Shown: positions 1,676 through 19,220 of the stretch, piece after piece | How positions within the stretch are numbered: the first letter of the stretch is position 1 | How the letters are laid out: each line of letters begins with the position of its first letter | Source: Shigella phage SSG23 | Direction: 5' to 3' (one strand) | Sequence record: PQ351811 | Length of the DNA: 64,000 nt | The notes under the pieces: model-generated | Seen by the model: only the letters and a program-made list of their open reading frames with translations | Databases searched by the model: none | What the model was told of the DNA's origin: nothing | Position numbers and translations under genes: made by a program

Positions 1676-1892
1676 CATTTCCCGTTTGCTGGAAGAAGCA
1701 GAGTTTGAAACTGACCTTGTGCCGTATTTCTCCAAATTATTTTTGAGAGATTGCGGCGTTCCGGTGATTATCGATCCGTGTAATATCAAGTCACCGGATC
1801 TTGAGGTCTTGACGGGTACAATCTCACATAGCTATAATGTATCAGAAGATGAATTTTCTTTAATCATCGACTATATCCCAGAAGGAAAATAA
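1659..1892 (+). CDS. hypothetical small protein
   Basis: ORF fills the gap after gene 55; overlaps the 55 stop by 17 nt; no recognised motif. Confidence 0.3.
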
Positions 1893-1893
1893 T

Positions 1894-2181
1894 ATGACTC
1901 ACAATGAACAACATGAGCAAATTGCTGTGAATGAAGTAGACAAAGTTCAAGCAGACCTAGAGGCGAAAGCCGCTAAAAAGGCTGGAAAGATCCTGCGTAA
2001 GAACGCGCGAGAGATTGAACGCCTTAAATTGTGGGCTGAAAAGGCTATCATCGATGATAACCGTGATGCGTATATCTACGCTATCGGAAAGTTACGTGAT
2101 ATCTACAAACAGCCACACACGCCAGAACTGCTTTCTGCTATGTGGATTAGTACACGGCAAACGGTATTAAGTATGCTGTAA
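1894..2181 (+). CDS. hypothetical protein
   Basis: 95-aa ORF immediately followed by a GAAA-tetraloop terminator hairpin. Confidence 0.45.
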   Translation: MTHNEQHEQIAVNEVDKVQADLEAKAAKKAGKILRKNAREIERLKLWAEKAIIDDNRDAYIYAIGKLRDIYKQPHTPELLSAMWISTRQTVLSML

Positions 2182-2190
2182 TGGCTTTAT

Positions 2191-2225
2191 AAGGGAGACT
2201 CCGAAAGGGGTTTCCCTTTTTATTT
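2191..2225 (+). terminator. rho-independent terminator
   Basis: AAGGGAGACTCC-GAAA-GGGGTTTCCCTT stem followed by TTTTATTTTT. Confidence 0.6.
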
Positions 2226-2271
2226 TTCTATGATATAGTGAGAGCATCGAAAACGAAGAGAGGAAGAGACT

Positions 2272-3297
2272 ATGAAAATTTTGCTTTTGGGTGATCTGCA
2301 TACTGGTATCGGTGGCGATGATCCGTGGGTGCATGAGTATATTTTAGACACGATCAAGAAAGCGGTTGATTATTCTAAAGAAAATGGTATTAAGACATGG
2401 ATTCAAACAGGGGATTGGTTTGATTGCCGCAAGGCGATAACTCATGAAACCATGAAGTTTAACCGTACTAAGGTCATCCCATTACTGGAAGAGGCTGGAA
2501 TTACTTGTTATATCACGGTCGGGAATCATGATATGTTTAAACGAAACAAGATCCAGCCTAACGCACCGCGTGAAGTGTTAAGCCAGTATGATTGCATTAA
2601 GGTCATCGATAAGCCGGAAACAGTTACCTTTGATGGTGTATCGTTTGATCTGTTCCCGTGGTTTTGTGATGATAATAAATCAGAGGTTTTAGAGTTTATT
2701 CAAAATTCATTCAGCGAATATTGTGTAGGCCATTGGGAATTGTCTGGTTACTATTTCTATAAAGGTCTAAAATCCGAAGGTTATAGCGCGGACTTCCTCA
2801 AGAAATACCGTGAAGTGTTTTCCGGTCACTTTCATACTATCAGTGATGGCGGTAACGTAACGTATATTGGCACACCATACACACTAACGGCGGGTGACGA
2901 AAACGATCCGCGTGGTTTTTGGGTATTCGATACCGATACACACAAAAAAGAGTTTATCCAGAATGATAAAACATATCATGTGCGTATCACTTACCCGTCA
3001 GATGATAAAATCGACGTAGAACGCTATAAGGGGCTTAGTGTGCGTCTTATCGCAACGGTCGCTGATAATGGGTTAACTAAGTTAGAAAGCGCGTTAGAAG
3101 CCGTTGTGCATAAGCTAAAAGTGGTCCATAAGCTGGAGAGTAGCGCATCACAGGAAACAGGTGTTATTGAAGTTAAAAGCACTATTCAGATGGTCTATGA
3201 ATATCTGGAAGAACAAAACCTAGAACCGGAAGAACTTGCGGCAGTTAAGCGCATCTCTGATGAACTTTTAGCCGAAGTAAATAGCGCAAAAAGTTAG
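2272..3297 (+). CDS. 47: recombination endonuclease subunit gp47 (Mre11/SbcD-like)
   Basis: Calcineurin-like phosphoesterase motifs (LLLGDLHTG, GDWFD, GNHD); 341 aa versus T4 gp47 339 aa; followed by gene 46. Confidence 0.9.
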   Translation: MKILLLGDLHTGIGGDDPWVHEYILDTIKKAVDYSKENGIKTWIQTGDWFDCRKAITHETMKFNRTKVIPLLEEAGITCYITVGNHDMFKRNKIQPNAPREVLSQYDCIKVIDKPETVTFDGVSFDLFPWFCDDNKSEVLEFIQNSFSEYCVGHWELSGYYFYKGLKSEGYSADFLKKYREVFSGHFHTISDGGNVTYIGTPYTLTAGDENDPRGFWVFDTDTHKKEFIQNDKTYHVRITYPSDDKIDVERYKGLSVRLIATVADNGLTKLESALEAVVHKLKVVHKLESSASQETGVIEVKSTIQMVYEYLEEQNLEPEELAAVKRISDELLAEVNSAKS

Positions 3298-3326
3298 TTG
3301 ACGCGGGGAGAAATCCCCGTTATACT
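3298..3326 (+). promoter_or_regulatory. sigma70-like early promoter with spacer hairpin (PeSL-like)
   Basis: TTGACG, 17-nt spacer containing CGGGGA-GAAA-TCCCCG hairpin, TATACT. Confidence 0.6.
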
Positions 3327-3350
3327 CTCTAAAAATTGATGGAGGTTATT

Positions 3351-3602
3351 ATGATTACTGATGCACTGAAAGAATTTAACGCAAGTTTAGAGAAGTTCAC
3401 TAAGATCCGAGTTTTTGAGGTTGTTCGGAATGGTCAACATATGCTATCCTTCCGTTCTAACTACGGGATGTGGACACATGACGAAATCCCGTTTGATCGT
3501 GATAATATCACTAGACTGGAACTAGCAACCATTGTATCCCGTAAGATTGCTGATATTACCCAGAATGTTATTGCGCGTGGGTCTATGGAGTCTGTACGAT
3601 GA
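3351..3602 (+). CDS. hypothetical protein
   Basis: ORF with GGAGG Shine-Dalgarno before ATG 3351; preceded by promoter-hairpin at 3298. Confidence 0.4.
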   Translation: MITDALKEFNASLEKFTKIRVFEVVRNGQHMLSFRSNYGMWTHDEIPFDRDNITRLELATIVSRKIADITQNVIARGSMESVR

Positions 3603-3916
3603 AAACACTTGCACAAAAAGTAATGGAATTTAATGCAGCGTTGCCTATGTTCGCTCGACGTAAGGGGATCTCCGTTGATGTATGGTATTCCAAAGAGCAT
3701 GAAGAAGTTCGGATGATGCTCGAAAAGCGACTCACTGACACTACCGTTAAGTGTAAGATTCGTTCTATTCCTCGCGAGGAAATAGAATTTGATGAAAGCT
3801 ATTACTTTACGCTGCGTCATGTGCTGAAACAAGCAATGGATGAACTTTTAGAAGACCTGAAACAATATGAGATTGAAGGGGGAACATATTATGAATATGA
3901 CTATGGTCGAGGCTGA
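3599..3916 (+). CDS. hypothetical protein
   Basis: ORF with ATGA overlap to the upstream gene. Confidence 0.4.
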   Translation: MKTLAQKVMEFNAALPMFARRKGISVDVWYSKEHEEVRMMLEKRLTDTTVKCKIRSIPREEIEFDESYYFTLRHVLKQAMDELLEDLKQYEIEGGTYYEYDYGRG

Positions 3917-4463
3917 TTCTGATTCGCTGGTAATGGAACATTTTATTGAATTGGTACACACATACACAATAAAACAATCATATCACAAGAATCCGATCTA
4001 TGGCTATCTGAAAGCGCGTATTGCTAAAATGTGGGGTCAGCCAGTGGTTAAGATGTGGTATGATGACGGTTATCGTCGTTACCTTAAAGTTATTCATCCA
4101 CAGGATTTGATGGTAACTATGGACATTGGCGACTTTGTAAAAGACAAAGTAGAATCCATTATTAAGAGTGTGGTTGGTGAATATAATCCGATTGTATATG
4201 GTGCTTTCGTCCAGTGGATACAATCCAGCAAGTATTATTTTCCGAATACTCCATTGACGCTAACAGGTTGGATCTCTGTCATGCATAGCGGTGTATTCCT
4301 GGAAGCGTCAGAGACAATGTACAAGGGATATATTCTCCCGCATCGACTGGTGAAATGTGATCACCGCTTGACTGTAGGTGAATTTCGCGATATTCTGGAA
4401 CAGCAAGCGGAAGACCTGCAAGGTGAAATTGAAGAATTTTTAGAGGAACATAAACTAAAATGA
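3891..4463 (+). CDS. hypothetical protein
   Basis: ORF; GAAGGGGG Shine-Dalgarno before ATG 3891. Confidence 0.4.
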   Translation: MNMTMVEADSDSLVMEHFIELVHTYTIKQSYHKNPIYGYLKARIAKMWGQPVVKMWYDDGYRRYLKVIHPQDLMVTMDIGDFVKDKVESIIKSVVGEYNPIVYGAFVQWIQSSKYYFPNTPLTLTGWISVMHSGVFLEASETMYKGYILPHRLVKCDHRLTVGEFRDILEQQAEDLQGEIEEFLEEHKLK

Positions 4464-4723
4464 TTCTATCGATGACCTACCTTAGACATAGGGTTATAGA
4501 AGGTCTTCGCGAATATCTGGCATTGAATAAAGGGATTTACATTGATCCCTTTATGACATATGATCCGGCGACACTGGATTATGTGGTCATGTTGCCAGAT
4601 CGCAGAGACACACTAGTTAAAGTGAAGGCGGCAAGTGTTTACAACATTGATGAAGATGTGTTAGCATTTAATATTATGGAATGTGTGATCGCGGAGTGGA
4701 TTAATGGCAAAGTTAAATTTTAA
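4460..4723 (+). CDS. hypothetical protein
   Basis: ORF with ATGA overlap to upstream gene; precedes gene 46. Confidence 0.4.
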   Translation: MILSMTYLRHRVIEGLREYLALNKGIYIDPFMTYDPATLDYVVMLPDRRDTLVKVKAASVYNIDEDVLAFNIMECVIAEWINGKVKF

Positions 4724-6386
4724 AACCTTGCGCTATCAGAATATAATGAGCGTAGGTGCTGAACCTGTAGAGATTCAGCTAGACGGATTCAAAAAGACAC
4801 TAATCACTGGTGTTAACGGTGCTGGTAAATCAACAATGATCGAGGCGCTTTGCTTTGTATTGTTTGGTAAACCGTTTCGTAGTATCAAGAAAGGCCAATT
4901 GATTAACAGCGTCAACAAAAAGAAACTGTTAGTCGAAGTCTGGTTTGAACTGGACGGGAAAGAATTTTATATTAAACGTGGTCAAAAGCCGGAAGTATTC
5001 GAAGTGCATCGCGACGGTCAAAAGATCGACGAGAGCGCGAGCACCAAAGACTTTCAGGAATATTTTGAAGGTATCATAGGCATGAACCTAGCCAGCTTTA
5101 AGCAGATTGTTGTTTTAGGCACTGCTGGTTATGTTCCGTTTATGAGTCTTCCGGCAGCGGGTCGCCGTAAGCTGGTCGAGGATTTGCTTGATATTGCCAC
5201 ATTAGGAGAAATGGACAAGCTGAATAAAGCGTATGTGCGCGAGATTACCCAGAATATCCAAATGCAGGAAATGAAAGCTAATCACGTTCAGCAACAAATC
5301 AACACTCATAAAAAGTACATAGAAGACGCTAGCAAGGCGAGTGCCGAGAATCTCCAGCGTTTACAGAATATGTATGATAAAGAGGTAGAATCGGCTAAAG
5401 CATTTAAAGCCGAAGAAACGCGCTTGACCGATGAGCTATTGGCTGTTGTTATGCCGGAAGATCCCAGCGCGGCATTGGCTAAAATTAATACGGCTATCGC
5501 ACAGATTGGTGCACAGATCCAGAACTTTGACCGTGTTATCCATATGCACGAGAAAGGCGGGGTTTGTCCTACGTGTACACAACCGATCATTCAGGGTAAT
5601 GATCATGCTGTACGCGAACAAAAAGCACAAGCAGAACATAAGCTGTCTCTGATTGACGAGAAACGCGTAGAATACGCAGAGAAAGCCAATTCTTTCCAGA
5701 CAGCACAAACTAAGGTCTTGGAAATTAAACGCGCTATAGAGTCACAGAGAGCGAATTTAACGGCATCTGTAGGTCGGGCTAAACAGATCCAGAAAGCAAT
5801 TCAGGAATTACAAAAAGAAAGGGTTGACAATTCCGAAGAACTTGCTAAACTGGAGCACGAACTGGTAGAGATTACCAATGAAAAATCAAAACTAGTTCTT
5901 GAAAAATATCATCGTGGATTTGTAACAGAAATGTTGAAGGATTCCGGTGTTAAGGCGTCTATCGTCAAGAAATATATTCCATATTTCAATGATCGAATTG
6001 CTTATTATCTGGAGATCATGGAAGCGGATTATATCTTTACGCTAGATGAAGAGTTTAACGAAACAATCAAATCACGGGGGCGTGAATCGTTTTCGTATAC
6101 ATCATTCAGTCAAGGCGAAAAAGCACGTATTGATCTTGCGATGCTCTTTACATGGCGTGATGTTGCTGGTAAAGTATCTGGTACTAATATCTCTTTGTTG
6201 GTACTCGATGAAATTTATGATGGGGCTACTGACGTTCAAGGCGTAAAAGCACTTGATTCCATCATTGACAAGTTAGATGATAACGTGTATATTATCAGCC
6301 ATCGTGACCATAACCCTGATGATTTTAGCCGTCATCTCAAGATGGTTAAACGTGGGCGATTCACTGAAATGAATGTTAACATTTGA
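4704..6386 (+). CDS. 46: recombination endonuclease subunit gp46 (Rad50/SbcC-like ATPase)
   Basis: Walker A GVNGAGKST at N-terminus, central coiled coil with CPTC zinc hook, C-terminal LVLDE Walker B; 560 aa as in T4. Confidence 0.9.
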   Translation: MAKLNFKTLRYQNIMSVGAEPVEIQLDGFKKTLITGVNGAGKSTMIEALCFVLFGKPFRSIKKGQLINSVNKKKLLVEVWFELDGKEFYIKRGQKPEVFEVHRDGQKIDESASTKDFQEYFEGIIGMNLASFKQIVVLGTAGYVPFMSLPAAGRRKLVEDLLDIATLGEMDKLNKAYVREITQNIQMQEMKANHVQQQINTHKKYIEDASKASAENLQRLQNMYDKEVESAKAFKAEETRLTDELLAVVMPEDPSAALAKINTAIAQIGAQIQNFDRVIHMHEKGGVCPTCTQPIIQGNDHAVREQKAQAEHKLSLIDEKRVEYAEKANSFQTAQTKVLEIKRAIESQRANLTASVGRAKQIQKAIQELQKERVDNSEELAKLEHELVEITNEKSKLVLEKYHRGFVTEMLKDSGVKASIVKKYIPYFNDRIAYYLEIMEADYIFTLDEEFNETIKSRGRESFSYTSFSQGEKARIDLAMLFTWRDVAGKVSGTNISLLVLDEIYDGATDVQGVKALDSIIDKLDDNVYIISHRDHNPDDFSRHLKMVKRGRFTEMNVNI

Positions 6387-6603
6387 CAGAGTAACGCAGC
6401 CGGAGTTAGAATTGTATACATTAATCAATCTATATTCCGGTGAAGAATATGTAGTTAGTATGGGGGATATGAAAAACAGCATATACAGCGATGCAGACAT
6501 AACAAAAATGTTGTCTTGTCGTCATCATGAGTTTATGCTGGTCCCCAACTTTGATAAACTTGATTACCCTGATGCTGGGGTTGCAACAAACTTTAGAACG
6601 TGA
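6373..6603 (+). CDS. hypothetical small protein
   Basis: ORF in the 46-rpbA gap; weak RBS. Confidence 0.3.
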   Translation: MLTFDRVTQPELELYTLINLYSGEEYVVSMGDMKNSIYSDADITKMLSCRHHEFMLVPNFDKLDYPDAGVATNFRT

Positions 6604-6633
6604 TATACTGATTTTATTTTGGAGATTAATATT

Positions 6634-7011
6634 ATGACTACTTCCGCAAACCTGGCTAAAATTACCGTAGCAGACATTCAGAACAAGAAAACCAGTCTCG
6701 AATTTGACCGAGCAATGAACAAGATCCGTAAAGCGTGGGTACTTCAAATGCCGGAAAGCGAGAAAGCTAAAATGAAGGTTATCCCACAGCAAGCACGCTT
6801 TGAACTATACGCGCATATTGATGATATGGTGCAAAAAGAATGGATCGCGGCAATGCGCAAGTATTACGATGATTCAATTGCTAAAGGCGCTAAAACTATT
6901 CGAGGTAAAGATATTCTCGAAAAGGGTTATCAGATTGACACTGATGAACTGCTGATTGAAGCCGCTAGCGCAGTAGTAACTCGTCTAATCGCAATTGCTG
7001 ATGGGAAGTGA
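6634..7011 (+). CDS. hypothetical protein at the position of T4 rpbA
   Basis: About 125 aa, GGAG Shine-Dalgarno; position between 46 and 45 matches T4 rpbA, but sequence identity was not verified. Confidence 0.4.
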   Translation: MTTSANLAKITVADIQNKKTSLEFDRAMNKIRKAWVLQMPESEKAKMKVIPQQARFELYAHIDDMVQKEWIAAMRKYYDDSIAKGAKTIRGKDILEKGYQIDTDELLIEAASAVVTRLIAIADGK

Positions 7012-7015
7012 TAGA

Positions 7016-7393
7016 ATGAAACGTATGAGCCTAAAAGAACAATTAATGTTTATCGAACTTGACTATAAACTATTCCCGATACCGTTTGATTATGTCAAAC
7101 GTGGCAGTGTGGTTAATTTTGATATTGGAACCGATAGCAACATTTGGCATTTTGTTGTTGATGAGTTTGTTGATAATGTGATTCGTCGTAAACTTGCTTT
7201 TGAACCTTGCGGTGATCTGGTATATCTCGAAGGCAAGAAGACCGCAAAGAACCCTGTTACTGTCTATGCTCTGCAACAATACTTGACAGCATATATTGGA
7301 TTCAGATATACTCATACTATTGATGAGAAAGCTGCGGAAAACTTCCAAAACAAAATGCTCAAGATTCGTAACGAACACGAAGTAAACCCGTAA
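7016..7393 (+). CDS. hypothetical protein
   Basis: ORF with GGGAAGTGA RBS before ATG 7016. Confidence 0.4.
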   Translation: MKRMSLKEQLMFIELDYKLFPIPFDYVKRGSVVNFDIGTDSNIWHFVVDEFVDNVIRRKLAFEPCGDLVYLEGKKTAKNPVTVYALQQYLTAYIGFRYTHTIDEKAAENFQNKMLKIRNEHEVNP

Positions 7394-7423
7394 TTAATTG
7401 ATTAACATGATAAAGGTGATTTG

Positions 7424-8110
7424 ATGAAACTGACTAAAGAAACTATTGCTACTCTGAAAAACTTTTCCGCTATTAACCCAGGTATCATCCTGAAAAAAGG
7501 AAATGTGCTGATCACCAAAAACATGACAAACGTTGTATATGGTGAAGCGACTCTGAATCAAGAACTGGAACACGAAATTGGGATCTATGATCTTAACTCT
7601 TTCCTGGGTATTCTGAATCTGGTAGGCGATGAAGCAGATATTACGGTTGATAACCGCACTGGAAACATTCGTGTGTCTAACGATCGTCTGAAAATTAACT
7701 ATCCTGGTGCTAGTGCTGCCGCTATCGTATCACCGAAAGGCCGAGTTACTCCACCTGCAAGCGATGTAGATTACGAACTGAGCAACGACGATCTGAAACA
7801 GCTTATGAAAATGAGCAATCAGCTTAAAGTGGACCGCCTTGAATTTCTACCGATTGATGGTCGTCTGATGATCAAAGGCTGGGAAGAGATTGACAAAAAC
7901 AATCCTAATGAGATGTTTTGTCTTGACATGGGCGAATATACCGGAACCGCCGACTTCCATTTCTTTATTCGTAAAGACAACATGAAACTGGTTGCTACTG
8001 ACTTCGGCGATTACAAACTGAGCTTCACTCGCCGTAAGGCTGTATGGCTGGCAAGTGAAACCGTGTCTTACATGATCGCGTGTGACCTTGACTCCAGCTA
8101 CACCGACTAA
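7424..8110 (+). CDS. 45: sliding clamp gp45
   Basis: N-terminus MKLTKETIATLKNFSAINPGI matches T4 gp45 (MKLSKDTTALLKNFATINSGI); 228 aa. Confidence 0.9.
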   Translation: MKLTKETIATLKNFSAINPGIILKKGNVLITKNMTNVVYGEATLNQELEHEIGIYDLNSFLGILNLVGDEADITVDNRTGNIRVSNDRLKINYPGASAAAIVSPKGRVTPPASDVDYELSNDDLKQLMKMSNQLKVDRLEFLPIDGRLMIKGWEEIDKNNPNEMFCLDMGEYTGTADFHFFIRKDNMKLVATDFGDYKLSFTRRKAVWLASETVSYMIACDLDSSYTD

Positions 8111-8122
8111 TATAATGTTTGT

Positions 8123-8147
8123 GGGGAGTGTAAATACTCCCTTTTTA
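8123..8147 (+). terminator. rho-independent terminator after gene 45
   Basis: GGGGAGT-gtaaat-ACTCCC followed by TTTTT. Confidence 0.55.
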
Positions 8148-8174
8148 ATGATGTAATTTGTGAGAGGTGATTAT

Positions 8175-9149: not shown

Positions 9150-9727
9150 TGTTAGGTCAATTTTTCGGTGAAGATGATACACAATTAAACGAGCATGAAA
9201 TTGCATGGCGCTCTCGTGATTGGGAAAAGGTGTCTGAACTAGCGGACACATTCACCGAGAAAACCGACAATGCATTATTTGCTCTGATGGATCATATCAC
9301 CTTAGATAAACAGCGCGTTAATGTGGGAAACAATTCTGCATATAACCAGAGATGGATTAACACCGCTCTTTCCCAGCACGCAGATTGTCTATATAGCGCG
9401 TATGTGATGAATTTAATCGGTCATGGCCTCCCAGATCAAATGCATTTTGATTATCTCTTACAGAGTATTTCTAAGGGGAAACGATACGGTAAATGGGCTA
9501 AACTAACAGAAGAATTGGACCAAAAATTGGTTTTAATGGCAGTGGCGAAAGCATATTGTGTAAATATGGATGACGCCCGGTTTTATCTCGATTTGGCTAA
9601 TGAAAAGGGATATATGGACAAGTTATTGAAGCACATTAAACCGTATGCGACCGATGAACTTTTGGCGGGTGTTACTAAGAATCAGACAGAAAGGAAACGA
9701 CTTAAAAAGATTATAGAAAGGTGGTAA
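9149..9727 (+). CDS. 62: clamp loader small subunit gp62
   Basis: ATG overlaps the gene 44 stop (TAATG); size and position match T4 gp62. Confidence 0.7.
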   Translation: MLGQFFGEDDTQLNEHEIAWRSRDWEKVSELADTFTEKTDNALFALMDHITLDKQRVNVGNNSAYNQRWINTALSQHADCLYSAYVMNLIGHGLPDQMHFDYLLQSISKGKRYGKWAKLTEELDQKLVLMAVAKAYCVNMDDARFYLDLANEKGYMDKLLKHIKPYATDELLAGVTKNQTERKRLKKIIERW

Positions 9728-9728
9728 A

Positions 9729-10091: not shown

Positions 10092-10112
10092 GATACTGAT
10101 GGGATAGGGGTG

Positions 10113-10141
10113 TTGACAAACTAGTTCGACTCCCCTATAAT
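10113..10141 (+). promoter_or_regulatory. sigma70-like early promoter upstream of gene 43
   Basis: TTGACA, 17 nt, TATAAT; GGGG...CCCC arms flank the -35. Confidence 0.6.
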
Positions 10142-10173: not shown

Positions 10174-12852
10174 ATGTATTTTCTGTCATGTGAGCGAGTA
10201 GGTGATAAGATCTACGAGCGTTATATTGATGATGCTGGACAAGAACAAGAGCGTTACGTTGAATATACGCCAACATTATTTCATCATGCCGCGCCTGGTA
10301 TGGTTACTAATTATAAAGATATCTATGGCAAGCCTTGCATTGCTAAAAAATTCCCATCTATGAACGAGGCCAACAAATGGCGTAAAAAGATGGGGGAAAT
10401 GGGGCAAGAGGCACTAGGGATGGATGATTTTATCATCTCCTATCTGTCTGATACATATAAAGGTGAGATTCGATATGACCGAAATAAAATCCGTGTAGCA
10501 TGGGTTGATATTGAGGTCACTGCACCGGAATTTCCTAAACCAGAAGAGGCGAAATATCCTATCGATGCAATTACGCATTATGACTCCGTACATGATCGTT
10601 TCTTTGTATTTGATTTGAAAGGAAAAAACGGTGAAATCTGGGAAGCAAGAAAGTCTATTCTTCGACCTGATATTGTAGAGCGCGTTGTTTATAACGTCTA
10701 TGATACAGAAGATGAATTGCTATTAGAATACATCCGATTCTTTGAGGAAAATCGACCAGTTGGCTTCACTGGCTGGAACACAGAAACATTCGATATCCCG
10801 TATATCATTAAGCGTATCAGTAATAAGTTTGGAAGTCGAACGGCAAACCGTTTAAGCCCGTGCGGTAAGATTAAATCCCGAATCTCACAGGATGATTTTG
10901 GCAACGAGCGTGAAGCATTTACGATCATGGGGATCGAAAGCCTTGATTACATTGACCTGTACAAGAAATTTAGCTTTACGACTCAACCAACATATGCATT
11001 AGATTATGTTGCTGAATATGAGACAGGAATCGGTAAGGTTGATTATGATGGTCCGTTAAAGAAATTGCGTGATGACAACCATCAACTTTACATCGATTAT
11101 AACATCGGCGACGTTGACCGTGTGCTGGCGATTGATAAAAAACGTGGTTTTATTGATCTGGTGTATAGCCTATGTTTCTATGCAAAAATTAAATTTAACC
11201 ATGTTTATAATCCGATGAAAGTATGGGATGCTATTATCTTCGGATCTCTGAAAGCAGAGGGTAAAGTAGTACCGGAAAATAAGATACAGCCTAAGCAGAC
11301 TTATCCCGGCGCATTTGTAAAAGAACCTGTGCCGAATGCTTACCGTTGGATGATGAGCTTTGACTTAACAAGTCTTTATCCATCTATTATTCGACAGGTT
11401 AATATTTCGCCGGAAACTATCGCTGGGTCTTTTGATGCTGCACCGATGCACGAGTATATCAATAAAACTGCCCCGCGTCCGAGTGATGAGTATTCTTGCT
11501 CGCCTAACGGATGGATGTATCGAAAAGATATTCATGGTATCGTACCGATTGAGATTAAAAAGGTATTCGACCAGCGTAAGCAGTACAAAAACATGATGTT
11601 GGCATGTGATCGCAATGCTGAACTCTGTAAAGCGATTCTACACGATGAAAATCATGTTTATGGGGGAACCATTAGCTATAGCGTTGAAGTTCGTCATGAC
11701 TTCGATGAAGCGTTTAAATCTATGCTTTCGGAATTGAGCAAAGATACCCTAGAAAAATTGCTGGAAGAATGTAAAGACGAGTCGATCTTGTGCAACACAA
11801 ACCAGCTTTCTCGAAAAGTTTTGATCAACTCCCTTTATGGTGCGTTGGGGAATCCTAAATTCCGCTTTTATGATCTCCGTAACGCTAGTGCGATCACATT
11901 GTTTGGTCAGCTTGCAATTCAGTGGATTGAGCGTAAGATTAACGAATACTTAAACGAGCTTTGCGGAACAACTGATTTTGCATATGTTCGTTATTGTGAT
12001 ACTGACTCCGTTTATGTGCTGGTTAACAATGTTGTTGATAAGGTTGGCGGGGAAGACCGTTTCGACGATACCGAAAAACTTGTTGACTTCCTTGATAATT
12101 TCGGTAAGCATAGAATGGAACCGATTATCGACAAGGGATATCGCGAGTTATGCGAGTACATGAACAACTATGAGCACTTGATGTTTATGGACCGTGAGGC
12201 AATTGCCGGACCGCCTTTGAAGTCTGCGGGTATCGGTGGATTCTGGACTGGTAAAAAGCGTTATGCTCTTAATGTTTGGGATATGGAAGGAACGCGCTTT
12301 GCTGAACCTAAGCTAAAAATCATGGGCTTGGAAACACAACGTAGTTCTACTCCTAAAGCATGTCAGAAATCACTGAAAGAATGTATTCGTCGTATGTTGC
12401 AGGAAGGTGAAGAGTCATTGCAGGAATACTACGGTATTTTTGAGCAAGAATTTAGAAAACTTGACTATCTTGAGGTTGCTGCGGTATCATCTGCAAACAA
12501 CCTACAGAAATACAGCGATTCAAACGGGTATCCGATTAAGGGTTGTCCGTATGCGGTTAAGAGTGTATTGTGTTATAATCGTAATGCTCGAAAATTCGGA
12601 CTAGATCCGATTCGTGAGGGCGAGAAAGTTATGATCGTACCGCTCAAAGATCGAAATCCGTTTGGAGAAATCTGTTTTGGTTGGTTGTCTGGTACTCGTA
12701 TTCCGCCAGAAATTGAATCAGAAGTGTTAAAGTGGTTAGACTGGCCTTTGTTGTTTAATAAGACTTTCGTCAAACCACTGGAGAACATTACCACGGCTGC
12801 AAAGCTGCAATATGAAAAAGTTGCTTCTCTGACTGACCTGTTTGACATTTAA
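10174..12852 (+). CDS. 43: DNA polymerase gp43 (family B)
   Basis: Exo and pol motifs (DIEV, YNIGDVD, SLYPSII, NSLYGALG, YCDTDS) collinear with T4 gp43; start taken at ATG 10174 after AGGAG, not the upstream GTG. Confidence 0.95.
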   Translation: MYFLSCERVGDKIYERYIDDAGQEQERYVEYTPTLFHHAAPGMVTNYKDIYGKPCIAKKFPSMNEANKWRKKMGEMGQEALGMDDFIISYLSDTYKGEIRYDRNKIRVAWVDIEVTAPEFPKPEEAKYPIDAITHYDSVHDRFFVFDLKGKNGEIWEARKSILRPDIVERVVYNVYDTEDELLLEYIRFFEENRPVGFTGWNTETFDIPYIIKRISNKFGSRTANRLSPCGKIKSRISQDDFGNEREAFTIMGIESLDYIDLYKKFSFTTQPTYALDYVAEYETGIGKVDYDGPLKKLRDDNHQLYIDYNIGDVDRVLAIDKKRGFIDLVYSLCFYAKIKFNHVYNPMKVWDAIIFGSLKAEGKVVPENKIQPKQTYPGAFVKEPVPNAYRWMMSFDLTSLYPSIIRQVNISPETIAGSFDAAPMHEYINKTAPRPSDEYSCSPNGWMYRKDIHGIVPIEIKKVFDQRKQYKNMMLACDRNAELCKAILHDENHVYGGTISYSVEVRHDFDEAFKSMLSELSKDTLEKLLEECKDESILCNTNQLSRKVLINSLYGALGNPKFRFYDLRNASAITLFGQLAIQWIERKINEYLNELCGTTDFAYVRYCDTDSVYVLVNNVVDKVGGEDRFDDTEKLVDFLDNFGKHRMEPIIDKGYRELCEYMNNYEHLMFMDREAIAGPPLKSAGIGGFWTGKKRYALNVWDMEGTRFAEPKLKIMGLETQRSSTPKACQKSLKECIRRMLQEGEESLQEYYGIFEQEFRKLDYLEVAAVSSANNLQKYSDSNGYPIKGCPYAVKSVLCYNRNARKFGLDPIREGEKVMIVPLKDRNPFGEICFGWLSGTRIPPEIESEVLKWLDWPLLFNKTFVKPLENITTAAKLQYEKVASLTDLFDI

Positions 12853-12896
12853 GATAAAGTGTGTATAATGGCGGGTGTTGGGTGACGATACCCGCC
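12842..12896 (+). promoter_or_regulatory. sigma70-like early promoter plus downstream hairpin
   Basis: TTGACA overlapping gene 43 stop, 16 nt, TATAAT, then GGCGGGT...ACCCGCC hairpin. Confidence 0.55.
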
Positions 12897-12913
12897 AATG
12901 TGAGAAATATACT

Positions 12914-13102
12914 ATGAGAGACATTGAAAAGATTAAACGTGAACGAGAGGAAGGTATAGAGCATTTCAAGAAAGTTCACGGAAATCACAGCAACGAAGTA
13001 TTTGTGACGATCGATGTTGATGCGATGAAAAAGTTAATTCAAGAGCACTACAAAGATCGAATAACAATGAAGCAATTAAAGTATTACGGATTAACTGAAT
13101 AG
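12914..13102 (+). CDS. hypothetical small protein
   Basis: ORF downstream of promoter-hairpin at 12842; occupies the T4 beta-gt/42/imm slot but is unrelated to them. Confidence 0.35.
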   Translation: MRDIEKIKREREEGIEHFKKVHGNHSNEVFVTIDVDAMKKLIQEHYKDRITMKQLKYYGLTE

Positions 13103-13113
13103 AGGTATTAATA

Positions 13114-14184
13114 ATGTCTGTACTGGAAAAACTGAAAAAGAACTCTACCCTGAAAACTACTGCGGTACTGTCTAAATCCAGCTTCTTTAACGAAAAAACA
13201 AATACTCGCACTAAGATCCCGATGCTGAATATTGCGTTTTCTGGTGATCTTAAAAAAGGCTTTCAATCTGGTCTGATTTTCTTTGCTGGTCCGTCTAAGC
13301 ACTTTAAATCAAACATGGGATTAACTTGTGTTAGTGCATACATGAAACAGAATCCTGATGCGGCTTGCTTGTTCTTTGATTCTGAGTTTGGTATTACTTC
13401 CGCATATCTGGAATCTATGGGAGTAGATCCTGATCGCGTGGTGCATGTTCCAATCAAGAACATCGAAGAACTTAAATTTGAAATCATGAACCAGCTTGAG
13501 CAAATTACCCGCGAAGATAAAGTGATTATCTTTATTGACTCAATCGGTAACTTAGCAAGTAAAAAAGAAGTTGAAGACGCGATTAATGAGAAATCCGCGC
13601 AGGATATGACGCGAGCTAAAGCACTTAAAGGCTTGTTCCGTATGGTTACGCCATATCTGACTATGAATGATATCCCGTGCATCGCCATTAACCACACTTA
13701 CGAAACGCAAGAAATGTTTAGTAAGACCGTTATGTCCGGCGGTACTGGCGCGATGTATTCAGCCAATGAAGTTTTCATTATCGGTCGTCGTCAGCAGAAA
13801 GAAGGAACCGAAATTACTGGTTATGATTTTATCCTGAATGCGGAAAAATCACGAACCGTTAAAGAAAAATCTAAGTTCCCGATTAGCGTAACCTTTAGCG
13901 GTGGTATCGATCCATATTCTGGCTTGCTGGAATTGGCTGTAGAGTTAGGTTGGGTAGTGAAACCGTCAAACGGCTGGTATTCTCGTTCCATCCTGAATAC
14001 AGAGACCGGAGAGATGGAAACCGAAGAACGCAAGTTCCGTGCTAAAGAAACCAATAGTATTGAGTTCTGGAAACCACTTCTGACAAACGATAAGTTTAAC
14101 GAAGCAATCAACGATCATTATAAGCTGGGACAAGTGATCAGCAATGAAGCAGTTGACAAAGAAATCGAAGATATGTTAGCATAA
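13114..14184 (+). CDS. uvsX: recombinase UvsX (RecA-like)
   Basis: FFNEK, TKIPMLNIAFSG, FAGPSKHFKSN Walker A and INHTYETQEMFSKTVM match T4 UvsX. Confidence 0.95.
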   Translation: MSVLEKLKKNSTLKTTAVLSKSSFFNEKTNTRTKIPMLNIAFSGDLKKGFQSGLIFFAGPSKHFKSNMGLTCVSAYMKQNPDAACLFFDSEFGITSAYLESMGVDPDRVVHVPIKNIEELKFEIMNQLEQITREDKVIIFIDSIGNLASKKEVEDAINEKSAQDMTRAKALKGLFRMVTPYLTMNDIPCIAINHTYETQEMFSKTVMSGGTGAMYSANEVFIIGRRQQKEGTEITGYDFILNAEKSRTVKEKSKFPISVTFSGGIDPYSGLLELAVELGWVVKPSNGWYSRSILNTETGEMETEERKFRAKETNSIEFWKPLLTNDKFNEAINDHYKLGQVISNEAVDKEIEDMLA

Positions 14185-14195
14185 CAATGGTAGTA

Positions 14196-14219
14196 AAGGG
14201 GCTACTTGCCCCTTTTTCA
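14196..14219 (+). terminator. rho-independent terminator after uvsX
   Basis: GGGGC-tactt-GCCCC followed by TTTTT. Confidence 0.6.
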
Positions 14220-14239
14220 TATCTAGAGAGGATTATATT

Positions 14240-14557
14240 ATGGATAAGAAACCAACAAGTTTAGAAGAAGCACACGGCTTGATTCAAGAAGCAATGAAGA
14301 CAGTTATTCAGGAATTGATAATTGTTGATGAAGAGGGAGAGCATCATATTGTCTATATTCATAATGTTGAATACGATCCAGACACTAAAGGTATTGTGGT
14401 CGACTACTCCACGCCGTCAGATCGTGATGTGGTATATCCTCACGTCATTAAGGCGTTAACCGCGCAGATCAAAGAAGCAGAAGAAAAGTTGAAAAAGGAA
14501 ACTTTCTGGTATAAACTCAAGACCTTTGTTATGCGTGTAGTCGGGGGCTATGTATGA
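14240..14557 (+). CDS. hypothetical protein at the T4 gene 40 position
   Basis: ORF between uvsX and 41; identity to gp40 not verified. Confidence 0.4.
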   Translation: MDKKPTSLEEAHGLIQEAMKTVIQELIIVDEEGEHHIVYIHNVEYDPDTKGIVVDYSTPSDRDVVYPHVIKALTAQIKEAEEKLKKETFWYKLKTFVMRVVGGYV

Positions 14558-15966
14558 TTAAAACTATCTTTTCACAGTTGATTTACAATGGCGCATTCTT
14601 TACGAATGTATGGCCTCACCTTAAAGCGGACTACTTCACCGAAGACGAAGAAAAACTGATTTATAAGCTGATTAAAAAGCACGTAGACGAATATTCTAAT
14701 ATTCCTACGCCAACTGCATTACAGATTGCTTTAGACAAGGAGAGAGGCAATCAGACAACATATGAAGGGGCTAAAACTCTTCTCGATTCGCTGGAGAATA
14801 CACCGGAAGACCTTGATTGGTTAATGAAGGAAACCGAAAAATTTATCCGCGACCGCGCTATGTATAATGCAATGTCACGGGCGCTAGAGATTCAGGCGAA
14901 CGCACAACTACCAAAAGAGAAACAGAATAAGAAATTGCCAAGTGAAGGCGCTATTCCTGAGATCATGCAGGAAGCACTATCCATTACGTTTGATTCTGAT
15001 GTAGGTCATGACTGGTTTAATGACTTTGAAAAACGATTCTTGTTATATCAGACTAAAGCGAATAAGATCCCGTTTAAGCTGTCTATTCTGAATAAAATCA
15101 CGAAAGGCGGGGCAGAGAAAAAGACATTGAATGTTTTACTTGCTGGTGTAAACGTTGGTAAATCGTTGGGATTGTGTTCTCTTGCTGCGGATTATATGGA
15201 ATGTGGTTATAATGTTCTGTATATCTCAATGGAGATGGCAGAGCATGTCGTAGCCAAACGTATTGACGCAAATTTGCTTGACATTACCTTAGATGAATTG
15301 GATGATGGCAATGTTTCCTTTGCTGAATATTCCGCACGCATGAAACGCGTCAAGAATAAGAAAGCTGGAGAACGTCCAATCGGCAAGCTGATGATCAAAC
15401 AGTATCCGACTGGTGGCGCGAACTCCAATCACTTTGAGGCGTTAATGAATGAATTGCGACTCAAGAAACAGTTTAAACCTGATGTTGTGATTGTTGACTA
15501 TCTGGGGATTTGCGCATCGTCTCGCTTGCGTGTATACTCTGAAAATAGTTACACACTAGTTAAGGCTATTGCGGAAGAACTTCGCGGATTTTTTGTTAAG
15601 TGGGATGTTGTTGGTTGGACTGCGGCACAGACTACCCGCGCGGGTTGGGATGCTTCCGACCTTAACATGAGTGATACCGCTGAATCAGCAGGTCTTCCGG
15701 CTACAGCCGATTTTATGTTGGGTGTAATTGAGACCGAAGATCTTGCAAAAATGGGTGTTCAATTACTCAAGCAGATTAAATCTCGTTACGGTGATAAGAA
15801 CTATTATTCACGGTTTAACGTTGGTGTGAAAAAAGGCAATCAGCGTTGGTATGAAGTCCCAAACCAGATCGCAGATCAGGAGAATGCACAAGTTAAACCA
15901 CAAAGCGCACAGCAAGCCGAGAAACGAGAAAAACTCGACGAGCTAGCAAATAACATGACTTTCTAA
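14554..15966 (+). CDS. 41: replicative DNA helicase gp41 (DnaB-like)
   Basis: Walker A LAGVNVGKSLGLCSLAADY, YISMEMAE, IKQYPTGGA, VDYLGIC match T4 gp41. Confidence 0.95.
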   Translation: MIKTIFSQLIYNGAFFTNVWPHLKADYFTEDEEKLIYKLIKKHVDEYSNIPTPTALQIALDKERGNQTTYEGAKTLLDSLENTPEDLDWLMKETEKFIRDRAMYNAMSRALEIQANAQLPKEKQNKKLPSEGAIPEIMQEALSITFDSDVGHDWFNDFEKRFLLYQTKANKIPFKLSILNKITKGGAEKKTLNVLLAGVNVGKSLGLCSLAADYMECGYNVLYISMEMAEHVVAKRIDANLLDITLDELDDGNVSFAEYSARMKRVKNKKAGERPIGKLMIKQYPTGGANSNHFEALMNELRLKKQFKPDVVIVDYLGICASSRLRVYSENSYTLVKAIAEELRGFFVKWDVVGWTAAQTTRAGWDASDLNMSDTAESAGLPATADFMLGVIETEDLAKMGVQLLKQIKSRYGDKNYYSRFNVGVKKGNQRWYEVPNQIADQENAQVKPQSAQQAEKREKLDELANNMTF

Positions 15967-16016
15967 TAAAATGCGCCCTACGGGGCGCTGGTGAATGATT
16001 TGATAGGAGATATAAC

Positions 16017-16652
16017 ATGATCGCTAATGCTTTACCGCCAAAATGGATCGTAAGTCGTTTTTATACTCTCAAGGAAGGTAACGCACCTGATGGTCGTCCG
16101 ATCCGAGATCTGTTTCTGGAGATGACTACAGCCGAAGCACAGTTTTATAATGATCTGACAGACGATAAGCCATTTCTCGTAAATTCGGTGGACCTTGATG
16201 GTAATGTTACGTCAATTATCGCACATGGTGGGGAAGTGAAAAATATTACTTCCTTGCGTGATCACGGTTGGGAAATTGCTTGTGTATTTCCTGCGGATGT
16301 ACGCGGATTCTTTGATGAGGTATCTGATATTAAAGTAAATGCACTGGAACCATATGACGAGAACCCACCACTGAAAGAAGAAAAAGAGTTGACACCGGAA
16401 GATGTAGGCAGTATACTACAACCCGACCTGTTTAAAAAGATTAGCGGTTTATGGACTATTACCCTGTATCCAACCGCATTAGGTTTAGAATTGGGTATGC
16501 CAACTTATTCTGATATTGATAATTGGACTAAGCACATTGATAAAGATGTTGAAAAACAGCGAAACAATGCTAAACTACAGTTGAAAGAGAAACGCAAAGA
16601 TCTTGAACGACAACTGAAAGAAACAAAACATTTGCTTTCTACGTTCGCTTGA
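16017..16652 (+). CDS. hypothetical protein
   Basis: 211-aa ORF in the 41-61 interval. Confidence 0.5.
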   Translation: MIANALPPKWIVSRFYTLKEGNAPDGRPIRDLFLEMTTAEAQFYNDLTDDKPFLVNSVDLDGNVTSIIAHGGEVKNITSLRDHGWEIACVFPADVRGFFDEVSDIKVNALEPYDENPPLKEEKELTPEDVGSILQPDLFKKISGLWTITLYPTALGLELGMPTYSDIDNWTKHIDKDVEKQRNNAKLQLKEKRKDLERQLKETKHLLSTFA

Positions 16653-16682
16653 TCTATAATGAAACTCTAAGGAGACTATATT

Positions 16683-17057
16683 ATGAAAAATATGATTACA
16701 CCGGAAGATGTAGCATTTAAAACCGCAAATAACGGAGACATTCTTATCTTTATTAACGGTAAACATGCTGGTATGGTTGAACCGGAAGGACGCTGGGGAG
16801 TCGCCGAACTTTATGATGTGGCTGGTGTAGATCCGAAAACTGCAATTGTTTTTCTGGCTGATAAAGATCAAATGCGTCGAAAAATTGCTGCGCTCTATAA
16901 TGAAGCAGTATATTTCTACGAACCGTTTCATCGTATTAAAACGATCTCCCGCGTGACTCGAAAAGATGTTAACGCTTGTATTATCAAGATTGTAGAGAAT
17001 CAGGATAAACTGACGAAAGACCAGATCGTTGACTTACTGAAAGAGATTATTCTATGA
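16683..17057 (+). CDS. hypothetical protein
   Basis: 124-aa ORF with GGAG RBS. Confidence 0.5.
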   Translation: MKNMITPEDVAFKTANNGDILIFINGKHAGMVEPEGRWGVAELYDVAGVDPKTAIVFLADKDQMRRKIAALYNEAVYFYEPFHRIKTISRVTRKDVNACIIKIVENQDKLTKDQIVDLLKEIIL

Positions 17058-17229
17058 TTGGCTTTAAACAGTTTGTTGAAGAAAATAAACTCAAAGAAGA
17101 TATGACCGCTGGCGATGCTGGCGGCAATCCTGAGAAGATCGCAGCAGGGGAAACGAGCGGATCTATTACCAATCGTGGACCTAGCGTAGTGGGTAAAGAA
17201 AAACGCAAGAAGGAGAAAGACGGTGCTTA
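17054..17229 (+). CDS. hypothetical small protein
   Basis: 58-aa ORF with ATGA overlap to upstream gene; Gly-rich, basic C-terminus. Confidence 0.3.
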
Positions 17230-17237
17230 GTATCATC

Positions 17238-17381
17238 ATGTTTATCGTTGGCTTGCTGTCCGCTATTATCGGTGTTGTTGTTTTCGGATTATCTGGACAC
17301 AAAACAAAAACAGAAAAGTTATCCGAGATCACAATGTATGTTGGTGTAGTTCTCATTCTGTTATCGGTGGCGCTTAAATGA
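17238..17381 (+). CDS. small hydrophobic membrane peptide
   Basis: 47-aa ORF with two hydrophobic stretches (FIVGLLSAIIGVVVFGL, YVGVVLILLSVAL); overlaps next start. Confidence 0.3.
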   Translation: MFIVGLLSAIIGVVVFGLSGHKTKTEKLSEITMYVGVVLILLSVALK

Positions 17382-17581
17382 TTACGATGAAATGTCTTAA
17401 AAGCACATATGCACTTTTTGAAGCCGGAAAAGAATATGAATTTACAGAACTTGATCCGGTAGGCCGTTTTCGTGTATTCTCTTACACATCGCCAGATGGT
17501 AGTGTCTACAAATTTGGCTTAGATGAGAACGGAGAGAATGAAAATGAAAGTGTTGGAACTTTCATGAAATTTGAGCTATAA
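17378..17581 (+). CDS. hypothetical small protein
   Basis: 67-aa ORF just upstream of primase. Confidence 0.4.
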   Translation: MITMKCLKSTYALFEAGKEYEFTELDPVGRFRVFSYTSPDGSVYKFGLDENGENENESVGTFMKFEL

Positions 17582-17590
17582 GAGGTTATT

Positions 17591-18619
17591 ATGATTTACT
17601 ACGCAGATTATGAAATAGCGGAAAAAGCCATATACGGCGAACGAAATTTTAAACGGTTGCATACTAGCTCATTTACGCTGGTCTGTAGTTGTCCGATCTG
17701 CGGTGACTCAAAGAAAAATCATACTCAAGCGCGATTCCGTATCTATACCTATAAGGATAGTTTGCGTTGTGGTTGTTTCAACTGTAACTACAATCAGCCG
17801 TTAGGTGAATTTCTCAAACAGTATAAGCCGGACCTATTCAGGGAATGGCTTATGGAACGACGGAAGGAACAAGGCGACCACAAGAACACCACGTTCAAGC
17901 CACTGAAAAAGGTAGAAAAGCCGGAGATTAAGAAAGTGCAAACATTGCCTTTCTGCGAGAGATTAGATACTCTTCCGGCTAATCATCCTATAATAAAGTA
18001 TGTCAGTGATCGTTGCATTCCCAACGATAAATGGGATCTTCTGTATTTCACGAGAGAATGGCAAAAGGTAGCAAATCACATTAAAGCGGATACCTTCAAG
18101 AATCCGCAACCTGAACCGCGTTTAGTGATTCCTATCTTTAACCGTGAGAACAAGATAGAATCCATTCAGGGGCGAGCATTGAGAAAGGATTACGGAAAGA
18201 CCAAATATATGACGATTAAAACTCATGAGTTAGCGAGTAAGGTCTACGGTCTTGAACGTGCTGATCCGAGCAAACCAGTGTACTTCTTAGAGGGTCCGAT
18301 AGATTCCCTGTTCATTGATAATGGATGTGCTATCACTGGCGGTACTTTGGGATTGGATGAAATTCCTTTCCCTGATCAGCGAGTGTTTGTACTTGACGCC
18401 GAACCACGGTCAGCCGATACAATGCACCGACTGGAAAAGTTTATCAATGCAGGGGAAAAGATTGTATTGTGGGATCGTTGCCCGTGGCATTCTAAAGACG
18501 TTAACGCCATGATTCAGGACGAGGGCGCTACACGCGACCAGATCATGGAATATATCAAAGAGAACACCGTACAAGGTCTGATGGCTAAAATGCGGTTTAT
18601 GAAATATTGTAAATTTTAA
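17591..18619 (+). CDS. 61: DNA primase gp61
   Basis: N-terminal zinc ribbon (CSCPICGD, CGCFNC) plus Toprim-like region; 342 aa as in T4. Confidence 0.9.
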   Translation: MIYYADYEIAEKAIYGERNFKRLHTSSFTLVCSCPICGDSKKNHTQARFRIYTYKDSLRCGCFNCNYNQPLGEFLKQYKPDLFREWLMERRKEQGDHKNTTFKPLKKVEKPEIKKVQTLPFCERLDTLPANHPIIKYVSDRCIPNDKWDLLYFTREWQKVANHIKADTFKNPQPEPRLVIPIFNRENKIESIQGRALRKDYGKTKYMTIKTHELASKVYGLERADPSKPVYFLEGPIDSLFIDNGCAITGGTLGLDEIPFPDQRVFVLDAEPRSADTMHRLEKFINAGEKIVLWDRCPWHSKDVNAMIQDEGATRDQIMEYIKENTVQGLMAKMRFMKYCKF

Positions 18620-18627
18620 TTAATGAG

Positions 18628-19152
18628 GTGAATATGTCAGAATTTAATTCTTGCGCTGGTCTGGTTAGCGACGAAACTATGTCTAAAGCTGGTATTGCGT
18701 ATTCCGAGGCAATCACTAGCGGCAAAGATCCGCTGCAAGTAATGTTAGATATGCAAAAAGGCTTACAGGTCGCACTAGCTGATAAATTTGAGTGGGTGCC
18801 GCATCCTGATAAGCTGGAAACTTGCGGGGAGATCCTTGATTGGATGAAGTTGTGGGATGACGCAATCGACGACGAGACACGAGAACTTTATGTTGCCCTG
18901 GGTGGCATGTCAAATGGCAAAGATGCAAGCGCAATTACTAAAGTGTGGAAGAAGAACCACGGCGAAGCACGAGCGCGTAAATTTGCTGATCTGTCAGATG
19001 ACGATAAAATCGAAATTGCGATGGAATTGATCGATATCTGGCATTTCGTGCTGATTAAAATGCTGGGCTTAGGTTTAACCGCTAAGGATATCTTCAAGCT
19101 GTACTACCTGAAAAATGCTGAAAATTTCGCCCGTCAAGAACGCGGCTACTAA
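18628..19152 (+). CDS. 56: dCTP pyrophosphatase gp56 (MazG-like)
   Basis: DPLQVMLDMQ, RELY, LGGMSNG and C-terminal FKLYYLKNAENFARQ match T4 gp56. Confidence 0.85.
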   Translation: MNMSEFNSCAGLVSDETMSKAGIAYSEAITSGKDPLQVMLDMQKGLQVALADKFEWVPHPDKLETCGEILDWMKLWDDAIDDETRELYVALGGMSNGKDASAITKVWKKNHGEARARKFADLSDDDKIEIAMELIDIWHFVLIKMLGLGLTAKDIFKLYYLKNAENFARQERGY

Positions 19153-19217: not shown

Positions 19218-19220
19218 ATT

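Follow-up and report, generated by a model that had tools for sequence, protein, structure and literature searches.

A 64,000-nucleotide stretch of DNA from Shigella phage SSG23 (record PQ351811), hereafter the window, was examined for the genes with which phage T4 modifies its cytosine, and for gene 56, the counterpart of the T4 enzyme that hydrolyzes deoxycytidine triphosphate (dCTP) and deoxyuridine triphosphate (dUTP). The first 20 kb of the window are 100% identical to Shigella phage SFHK24 (PQ351812.1, from position 67342), whose taxonomy line reads Straboviridae; Krischvirus. RB49, Phi1, JSE and other Krischvirus records (about 57 besides RB49) are about 95% identical to the same 20 kb. 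Near-identical sequence, together with a gene order of the RB49 type, places the window phage in this genus. The G+C content of the window is 40.9% and the genome is 168.8 kb long.

In the T4 record, the first junction of interest runs 55, a-gt.5, a-gt.4, a-gt.3, a-gt.2, mobB, a-gt, 47.1, 47, and the second runs 43, imm.1, imm, 42, b-gt, segA, uvsX. The first-pass annotation had cited this order correctly, and its coordinates and layout for the window match the annotated gene positions. It had placed only a 95-amino acid (aa) open reading frame (ORF) and a 62-aa ORF in the two junctions and had found that neither resembled the T4 modification proteins. The absence of alpha-gt, imm, 42 and beta-gt holds, but the 55–47 junction contains two ORFs, a 77-aa ORF having been overlooked (Table 1). 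The 95-aa ORF is, moreover, a homolog of T4 a-gt.4 from the same slot. With a-gt.5 and a-gt.4 homologs side by side, the slot therefore keeps small T4 genes, without a-gt.3, a-gt.2, mobB, a-gt and 47.1. Where T4 carries these missing genes, the window has a terminator-like stem-loop, and a terminator is annotated somewhere in the stretch from the a-gt.4 homolog to gene 47 in several related records. The 62-aa ORF is hydrophilic and charged and showed no phmmer match to T4 imm or imm.1 at E≤10. T4 Imm is annotated as a membrane protein. Across 58 Krischvirus records, the 43–uvsX junction has a constant length in all 58, and the 55–47 junction is equally long in 52, the other 6 having an inserted HNH homing endonuclease.

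Table 1. Genes and other features at the slots discussed and related genes. Positions refer to the window unless stated otherwise.
Feature	Position	Strand	Basis or remark
Gene 55, late sigma factor, left border of T4 alpha-gt slot	1142..1675	+	PQ351812.1 annotation, ORF list
77-aa ORF, T4 a-gt.5 homolog, function unknown	1659..1892	+	phmmer E=3.1e-7; phrog_1169 E=1.4e-28; a-gt.5 in RB49/Phi1/JSE records
95-aa ORF, T4 a-gt.4 homolog, conserved hypothetical	1894..2181	+	phmmer E=2.5e-15; phrog_951 E=7e-33; a-gt.4 in RB49/Phi1/JSE records
Terminator-like stem-loop, 12 pairs and T-run, between a-gt.4 homolog and gene 47	2191..2218	+	Terminator scan
Gene 47, SbcD-like recombination nuclease subunit, right border of alpha-gt slot	2272..3297	+	Annotation
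Gene 43, DNA polymerase, left border of T4 imm-42-beta-gt slot	10174..12852	+	Annotation
62-aa hydrophilic charged ORF, sole gene between 43 and uvsX	12914..13102	+	Translation; phrog_12120 (unknown function)
uvsX, RecA-like recombinase, right border of imm-42-beta-gt slot	13114..14184	+	Annotation
Gene 61, primase, abuts gene 56	17591..18619	+	Annotation
Gene 56, all-alpha nucleoside triphosphate (NTP) pyrophosphatase, ortholog of T4 dCTPase/dUTPase	18634..19152	+	ORF extends to GTG at 18628
Divergent patch in gene 56 (allele A), sharply bounded	18668..19107	+	Alignment, sliding identity
frd, dihydrofolate reductase, deoxythymidine monophosphate (dTMP) pathway	53265..53834	+	T4 Frd phmmer E=4.8e-21; annotation
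td, deoxyuridine monophosphate (dUMP)-type thymidylate synthase	54169..55401	+	TIGR03284; Pfam PF00303 in two stretches; E. coli ThyA alignment
denA, endonuclease II homolog	62051..62512	+	T4 DenA phmmer E=1.1e-41; annotation
Dam ortholog	record 55762..56580, outside window		T4 Dam phmmer E=5.5e-67

T4 proteins served as phmmer queries (cut-off E≤10) on two sets of targets. One comprised every six-frame ORF in the window from 30 aa upward, the other 86 ORFs from outside it, almost all with a length of 150 aa or more. No match was obtained in these sets for gp42, a-gt, b-gt, imm, imm.1, alc, denB, ndd or arn. Small T4 proteins such as imm and arn were thus searched within the window only; the 150-aa limit outside the window is irrelevant for enzymes as large as the hydroxymethylase and the glucosyltransferases. 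A Pfam scan of 30 ORFs, nearly all annotated as hypothetical, gave no glycosyltransferase, no second ThyA fold and no TET/JBP-type domain. No deoxycytidine monophosphate (dCMP) hydroxymethylase of the gp42 type, which has the ThyA fold, came to light, td being the only PF00303 protein found. For glucosyltransferases (alpha-gt, beta-gt, beta-alpha-gt/TAGT), the phmmer queries a-gt and b-gt and the Pfam scan were blank, and the slots are compact in the 58 records. DenB, Alc, Ndd and the anti-Mcr protein Arn were likewise unmatched (small ORFs in the window only), and DenA alone is present, in agreement with Table 4 of PMC12115623. The search for ThyA-fold hydroxymethylases and glycosyltransferases that the first-pass annotation had proposed thus returned none in the 168.8-kb genome, and the modification genes are, as judged from these searches, absent genome-wide.

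Several T4 genes of nucleotide and DNA metabolism are present. The phage encodes gp56, the dCMP deaminase Cd (T4 Cd phmmer E=7e-61, gene outside the window), Td, Frd, NrdAB, thymidine kinase and deoxynucleoside monophosphate kinase. T4 has dam between 61 and 56, whereas the window phage has its Dam ortholog elsewhere in the genome. The denA gene is kept although T4 DenA attacks cytosine DNA and the phage's own DNA holds cytosine. This retention is discussed in PMC8056088, which raises the question of how the phage avoids cutting itself.

The gp56 homolog is clear, as had been noted, with 52% identity to T4 gp56 (phmmer E=4e-53) and membership of phrog_173 (nucleoside triphosphate pyrophosphohydrolase). 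On Pfam dUTPase_2 it scores 23.3 bits, barely over the cut-off of 22.9. The structure model predicts an all-alpha helical-bundle fold as in the all-alpha NTP pyrophosphatases MazG, HisE, dimeric dUTPase and DCTPP1 (RS21-C6), which would make gp56 a member of that group; it differs from them in having no sequence-level match to solved structures, and the Foldseek E-values were non-significant. Eleven acidic residues (D32, D76, D80, E81, E84, E111, D124, E127, E131, D134 and E163) occur in both alleles of the gene and recur in 90% or more of 37 homologs; they are assumed, by analogy with the superfamily, to be metal binders. Gene 56 matches occur in 1,396 phage records (tblastn), with at least 46% identity in the rows sampled, and the ORF is intact in every record inspected.

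Within Krischvirus, gene 56 exists as two alleles. Compared with RB49 AY343333, 146 of 519 nucleotides differ in the window, nearly all inside a sharply bounded patch, while the flanks are about 100% identical. Allele A is carried by SFHK24, the Makalu phages, MIZ2/3/6, TB34 and SAP, and allele B by RB49 (AY343333), Phi1 and GEC-3S; the two share 69% protein identity and have diverged by 28% in DNA. The ratio of nonsynonymous to synonymous divergence (dN/dS) between them is 0.20, although dS, at 1.15, has reached saturation, and of the 53 differences between the alleles no more than 2 affect conserved columns. The low ratio and the sparing of conserved columns indicate that gene 56 is functional and under purifying selection in a lineage with cytosine DNA. 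Eleven records, every one of them with allele A, have a homing endonuclease gene inserted between 61 and 56, and the roughly 40 allele-B records have none. TB34 and SAP, whose records were looked at in detail, encode a 188-aa HNH-type enzyme there. This arrangement is reminiscent of T4 SegF, a free-standing endonuclease of localized marker exclusion that adjoins gene 56 and targets it (PMC2988022 Table 1). The Krischvirus enzyme, however, is HNH rather than GIY-YIG and sits on the other side of gene 56; SFHK24, furthermore, has allele A without an endonuclease. Two sequences go by the name RB49. OZ035808.1 (162,105 bp), entitled 'Krischvirus RB49', has allele A and matches the window at 97.7% identity over 61-56-modB; the original sequence, AY343333.1, has allele B and matches at 91.3%. 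They must therefore stem from different phages.

The td product was described in the first-pass annotation as a true dUMP-specific thymidylate synthase, and the sequence bears this out. It scores 282 bits on the thymidylate-synthase equivalog TIGR03284, against a cut-off of 108. Aligned to E. coli ThyA, it has the catalytic Cys in CHPFVQFY (CHAFFQFY in E. coli) and the Asn in PFNVASY (PFNIASY in E. coli). This Asn sets the dUMP specificity of ThyA; gp42 has Asp at that position.

Hexamer counts in the 64-kb window and in a 43-kb T4 segment were compared with expectations from a maximal-order Markov model, words expected at least 5 times being taken as testable. The window lacks 25 of the 63 palindromic hexamers, including the sites of EcoRI, HindIII, BamHI, KpnI, NcoI, PvuII, SacII, ScaI, StuI, AgeI, SphI and PstI. 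Among testable palindromes, 16 of 52 are absent from the window and 0 of 39 from the T4 segment; for non-palindromic hexamers the corresponding counts are 4 of 1,821 and 0 of 1,362. Palindromes and non-palindromes are separated with a Mann-Whitney p of 7.5e-24 in the window and of 0.006 in T4. Palindromes containing G or C are observed 436 times against 762 expected in the window, and 365 times against 383 expected in T4. Avoidance of type II restriction sites is expected where bulk base modification gives the DNA no protection. The palindrome avoidance therefore argues that the lineage evolved with restrictable DNA. Present in the window and absent in T4, it offers a cheap indicator of DNA modification status that needs nothing beyond the genome sequence.

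The non-palindromic CTGAAG, which we take to be the Eco57I/AcuI site, is also absent from the window (15 expected). GATC is not avoided in the window (343 observed, 350 expected; 5.4 per kb) and is strongly avoided in T4 (44 observed, 142 expected), though each of the two phages has a Dam ortholog. Both CCWGG and CCSGG are rarer than expected in the window, with observed/expected ratios of about 0.46 and 0.33.

The published record on relatives is in line with these results. According to Petrov et al. 2010 (PMC2993671 Table 4), RB49-type phages have no gene 42, no glucosyltransferases, no denB and no alc, and later accounts of the RB49 group describe the modification genes as gone with DenA and dCTPase-dUTPase homologs kept (PMC8056088; PMC12115623 Table 4). 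RB49 DNA, unlike T4 DNA, is cut by the C-methylation-sensitive enzymes HpaII and NheI (PMC4041780). High-performance liquid chromatography and mass spectrometry (HPLC/MS) found canonical cytosines in Krischvirus TB34 (PMC13390438). The missing-modification-gene pattern is thus already known for Krischvirus, having been published for the genus in papers of 2010, 2021 and 2025; the finding is correct, not new. It restates a textbook-level difference between T-even and pseudo-T-even phages and changes little. The cytosine DNA of Krischviruses has been linked to generalized transduction (PMC12115623). These phages also find use in phage therapy; how far restriction and CRISPR can act on them hinges on their DNA being unmodified.

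Gene absence, HpaII and NheI cutting of RB49 DNA, HPLC/MS of TB34 and palindrome avoidance together support one of the options left by the first-pass annotation, that the phage uses unmodified cytosine. The window comes from a Krischvirus that, like the genus as a whole, lacks the T4 hypermodification module together with denB, alc, ndd and arn, genes of use only to a phage with modified DNA. Very probably it packages DNA with ordinary cytosine and keeps gp56 as a nucleotide-pool enzyme. The most likely role of gp56 is nucleotide-pool housekeeping. It would hydrolyze dUTP and deoxyuridine diphosphate (dUDP), keeping uracil out of DNA and supplying dUMP to Td, and would probably also hydrolyze some dCTP and deoxycytidine diphosphate (dCDP). 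Acting with Cd, it could turn surplus deoxycytidine nucleotides into dTMP and so shift the pool toward deoxythymidine for a genome of about 41% G+C. We infer both the substrate preference and the flux in this scheme. Gene 56 occurs in all T4 relatives bar four giant phages, in which a host-like dUTPase takes its place (PMC2993671), and this replacement points to dUTPase as the conserved role. The earlier suggestion that gp56 serves another role was apt insofar as dCTP exclusion would not be its use, but 'another' is overstated, as dUTP/dUDP hydrolysis belongs to the known activity of T4 gp56 (PMC2993671; T4 annotation).

Several points weigh against this interpretation. For a phage that depends on dCTP, a strong dCTPase would be a handicap, and the DNA chemistry is known from the relatives RB49 and TB34, not from SFHK24 virion DNA itself. 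T4 multiple mutants without gp56 grow with cytosine DNA. A phage dUTPase is therefore not strictly essential when the host has Dut. This tolerance of gp56 loss, along with the disappearance of the partners gp42 and the glucosyltransferases, is also what would be expected if gene 56 were a decaying, non-functional relic of an ancestor that used hydroxymethylcytosine. The intact ORF, the low dN/dS, the full set of conserved acidic residues, the sparing of conserved columns and the wide spread of matches described above speak for a working gene and leave the relic extremely unlikely. Two further points, a contrary report on a close relative and three methyltransferase-like genes outside the window, concern the chemistry of the DNA. 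They bear on the remaining option of the first-pass annotation, that modification genes lie elsewhere or are of a different type; with no hydroxymethylase or glycosyltransferase found genome-wide, that option survives in a weak form, a compact C5-methyltransferase-like gene outside the window whose product would contribute no more than sparse, site-specific methylation.

The contrary report is that Krischvirus SAP contains 5-hydroxymethyldeoxycytidine together with glucosyl- and gentiobiosyl-methyl-deoxycytidine, that TB34, 99.96% identical, does not, and that no pathway was found (PMC13390438). If true, a genome of the window type is able to make hypermodified cytosine. Krischviruses would then have a cryptic, non-homologous route to 5-hydroxymethyl- and glucosyl-/gentiobiosyl-methyl-cytosine without known enzyme families, and gp56 would be a true dCTP-excluder as in T4. 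We consider this very improbable. SAP, whose DNA is 95-97% identical to the window in the segments that were compared, is reported to be susceptible to BrxU, a type IV enzyme (PMC13390438), gp56 and denA are retained, and several early proteins of 160-490 aa are without known function, all of which such a route would accommodate. However, the modification profile of SAP is that of seven T6-like Tequatroviruses in the same collection (PMC13390438), the sibling TB34 is unmodified, and the sequence differences between the two (PMC13390438 Table S5) are mostly 1-bp indels, of which 6 were checked and all coincide with homopolymer runs. Taken at face value, these indels would shift the reading frames of DNA polymerase, the sliding clamp, UvsX, gp47, NrdB, topoisomerase and further genes, and gp47 and uvsX are indeed split in the TB34 record. 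The other differences comprise 14 single-base changes, C>T or G>A, and 8 of 8 checked fall at the central base of CCSGG (ACCSGG or CCSGGT); SFHK24 agrees with the SAP reading at the one homologous site in the window, position 8328. Dcm sites (CCWGG) were considered for these single-nucleotide changes and rejected, the 8 checked lying at CCSGG. Within positions 2800..32900 of the SAP record, 8/14 CCSGG sites are altered. SAP and TB34 are identical across the 61-56 region. The differences therefore look like sequencing artefacts, and no genetic basis is then left for differing DNA chemistry. Nor does a hypermodified phage fit with the blank phmmer and Pfam searches for a glycosyltransferase or hydroxymethylase, with strong restriction-site avoidance, which hypermodified DNA would not need, or with the cutting of RB49 DNA by HpaII and NheI (PMC4041780). 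Just as improbable is an unrecognised hypermodification route of which gp56 and denA would be the visible part, left from a dCTP-exclusion system that still works but is active in certain isolates and silent in others. We infer that a mixed or mislabelled SAP DNA preparation is likelier than a cryptic pathway, and these observations give a concrete reason to re-examine the sole published claim of a modified Krischvirus before a new pathway is sought.

The methyltransferase-like genes outside the window comprise the Dam ortholog, an amino-methyltransferase-like protein and a compact 238-aa C5-methyltransferase-like protein. With three such genes, 'unmodified' may mean not hypermodified rather than free of methylation. 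Sparse, site-specific cytosine methylation by the 238-aa protein (record 141951..142667) would be compatible with ordinary-cytosine DNA and a housekeeping gp56, and we regard it as conceivable but rather doubtful. By eye, the protein shows FDGSG, FPPC and ENP, to be compared with motifs I (FxGxG), IV (PC) and VI (ENV). Its family has more than 7,000 matches. Most of the named members belong to phages, a few bear PF00145, and the family goes under the name of C-5 cytosine methylase in some sources. The structure model (predicted local distance difference test score 91) gives the DNMT3A/3B catalytic domains as top Foldseek matches, with E of about 2e-7 and template-modeling scores of 0.43-0.54. 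The protein is kept in the genus (P0001: 98% identity, 243 member sequences), and a DNA-cytosine methyltransferase is listed for the RB49 group (PMC8056088). If TB34 was sequenced on a nanopore platform, the C>T differences between TB34 and SAP at CCSGG would also be consistent with base-calling errors at a motif that carries a modification. On the other hand, the 238-aa protein itself has no significant Pfam or NCBIfam match, neither its sequence nor the family profile matched a PDB chain, and its short length leaves little room for a target-recognition domain. TB34 had no detectable modified nucleoside, though about 30 sites per genome could escape HPLC. HpaII, which recognizes CCGG, cuts RB49 DNA (PMC4041780), and the target of the protein could be other than phage DNA. 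The gene is one of three adjacent ones (record 141951..143516), the others encoding a 109-aa protein of unknown function and a GmrSD_N/DUF262 protein that matches PADLOC NsnA and PD-T4-2_A. This trio may be a small restriction-modification-like or anti-competitor cassette.

Among known systems, the window is closest in layout to the pseudo-T-even phages RB49, Phi1 and JSE, which have the same 55/a-gt.5/a-gt.4/47 and 43/62-aa ORF/uvsX junctions, lack 42, a-gt, b-gt, denB, alc and ndd, and keep 56 and denA (PMC2993671, PMC12115623). RB49 differs from SFHK24 in its gp56 allele (AY343333), as described above, and in an HNH endonuclease in the 55-47 junction that is absent in SFHK24. Nolan 2006 says nothing on gene 56 (PMC1524935). 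With T4, the window phage shares the backbone order 55...47, 43...uvsX and 61...56 and orthologous gp56, td, frd, cd, gene 1, denA and Dam. The T4 hypermodification system consists of the dCTPase gp56, the dCMP hydroxymethylase gp42, the gp1 kinase and the alpha- and beta-glucosyltransferases, with denA, denB and alc directed at cytosine DNA. The window phage differs in having none of gp42, a-gt, b-gt, imm, denB, alc, ndd and arn and, unlike T4, avoids palindromes. RB43-type phages (Pseudotevenvirus) resemble it in lacking gp42 and denB, keeping gp56 and denA, and encoding a cytosine methyltransferase (PMC8056088, PMC12115623); they transduce, which has been taken as a sign of cytosine DNA (PMC8056088, PMC12115623, PMC1524935). 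They belong to another genus, however, and keep ndd (PMC12115623), and the RB43 methylase is a strong Pfam C-5 methylase match (E=1e-117), unlike the compact 238-aa protein.

A few observations concern neighboring or less central features. The td gene has an in-frame insertion, residues 76-253 (window 54394..54927), in place of residues 76-109 of E. coli ThyA, a net gain of about 145 aa. The insertion is kept across Krischvirus with 90-100% identity; taken alone it has no match in Pfam, and its relatives include stretches in the thyA of Klebsiella jumbo phage KP13-7 (39% identity) and in a gene of Vibrio phage D69 (35%) whose annotation reads HNH endonuclease. Directly upstream of gene 55 lies a 489-aa early protein (window 1..1101 and the stretch before the window), assigned to phrog_2467, of unknown function, with no match in Pfam, PDB or PADLOC. 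It is the largest gene of unknown function adjoining the studied region. The 62-aa ORF is preceded by a sigma-70-type promoter close to consensus (TTGACA, 17 nt, TATAAT), after which comes a short inverted repeat seen by eye (12842..12912). This promoter and inverted repeat, and the strong terminator-like hairpin at 2191..2218, resemble the promoter/stem-loop cassettes of RB49 and Phi1 (PMC2839356, PMC4122927).

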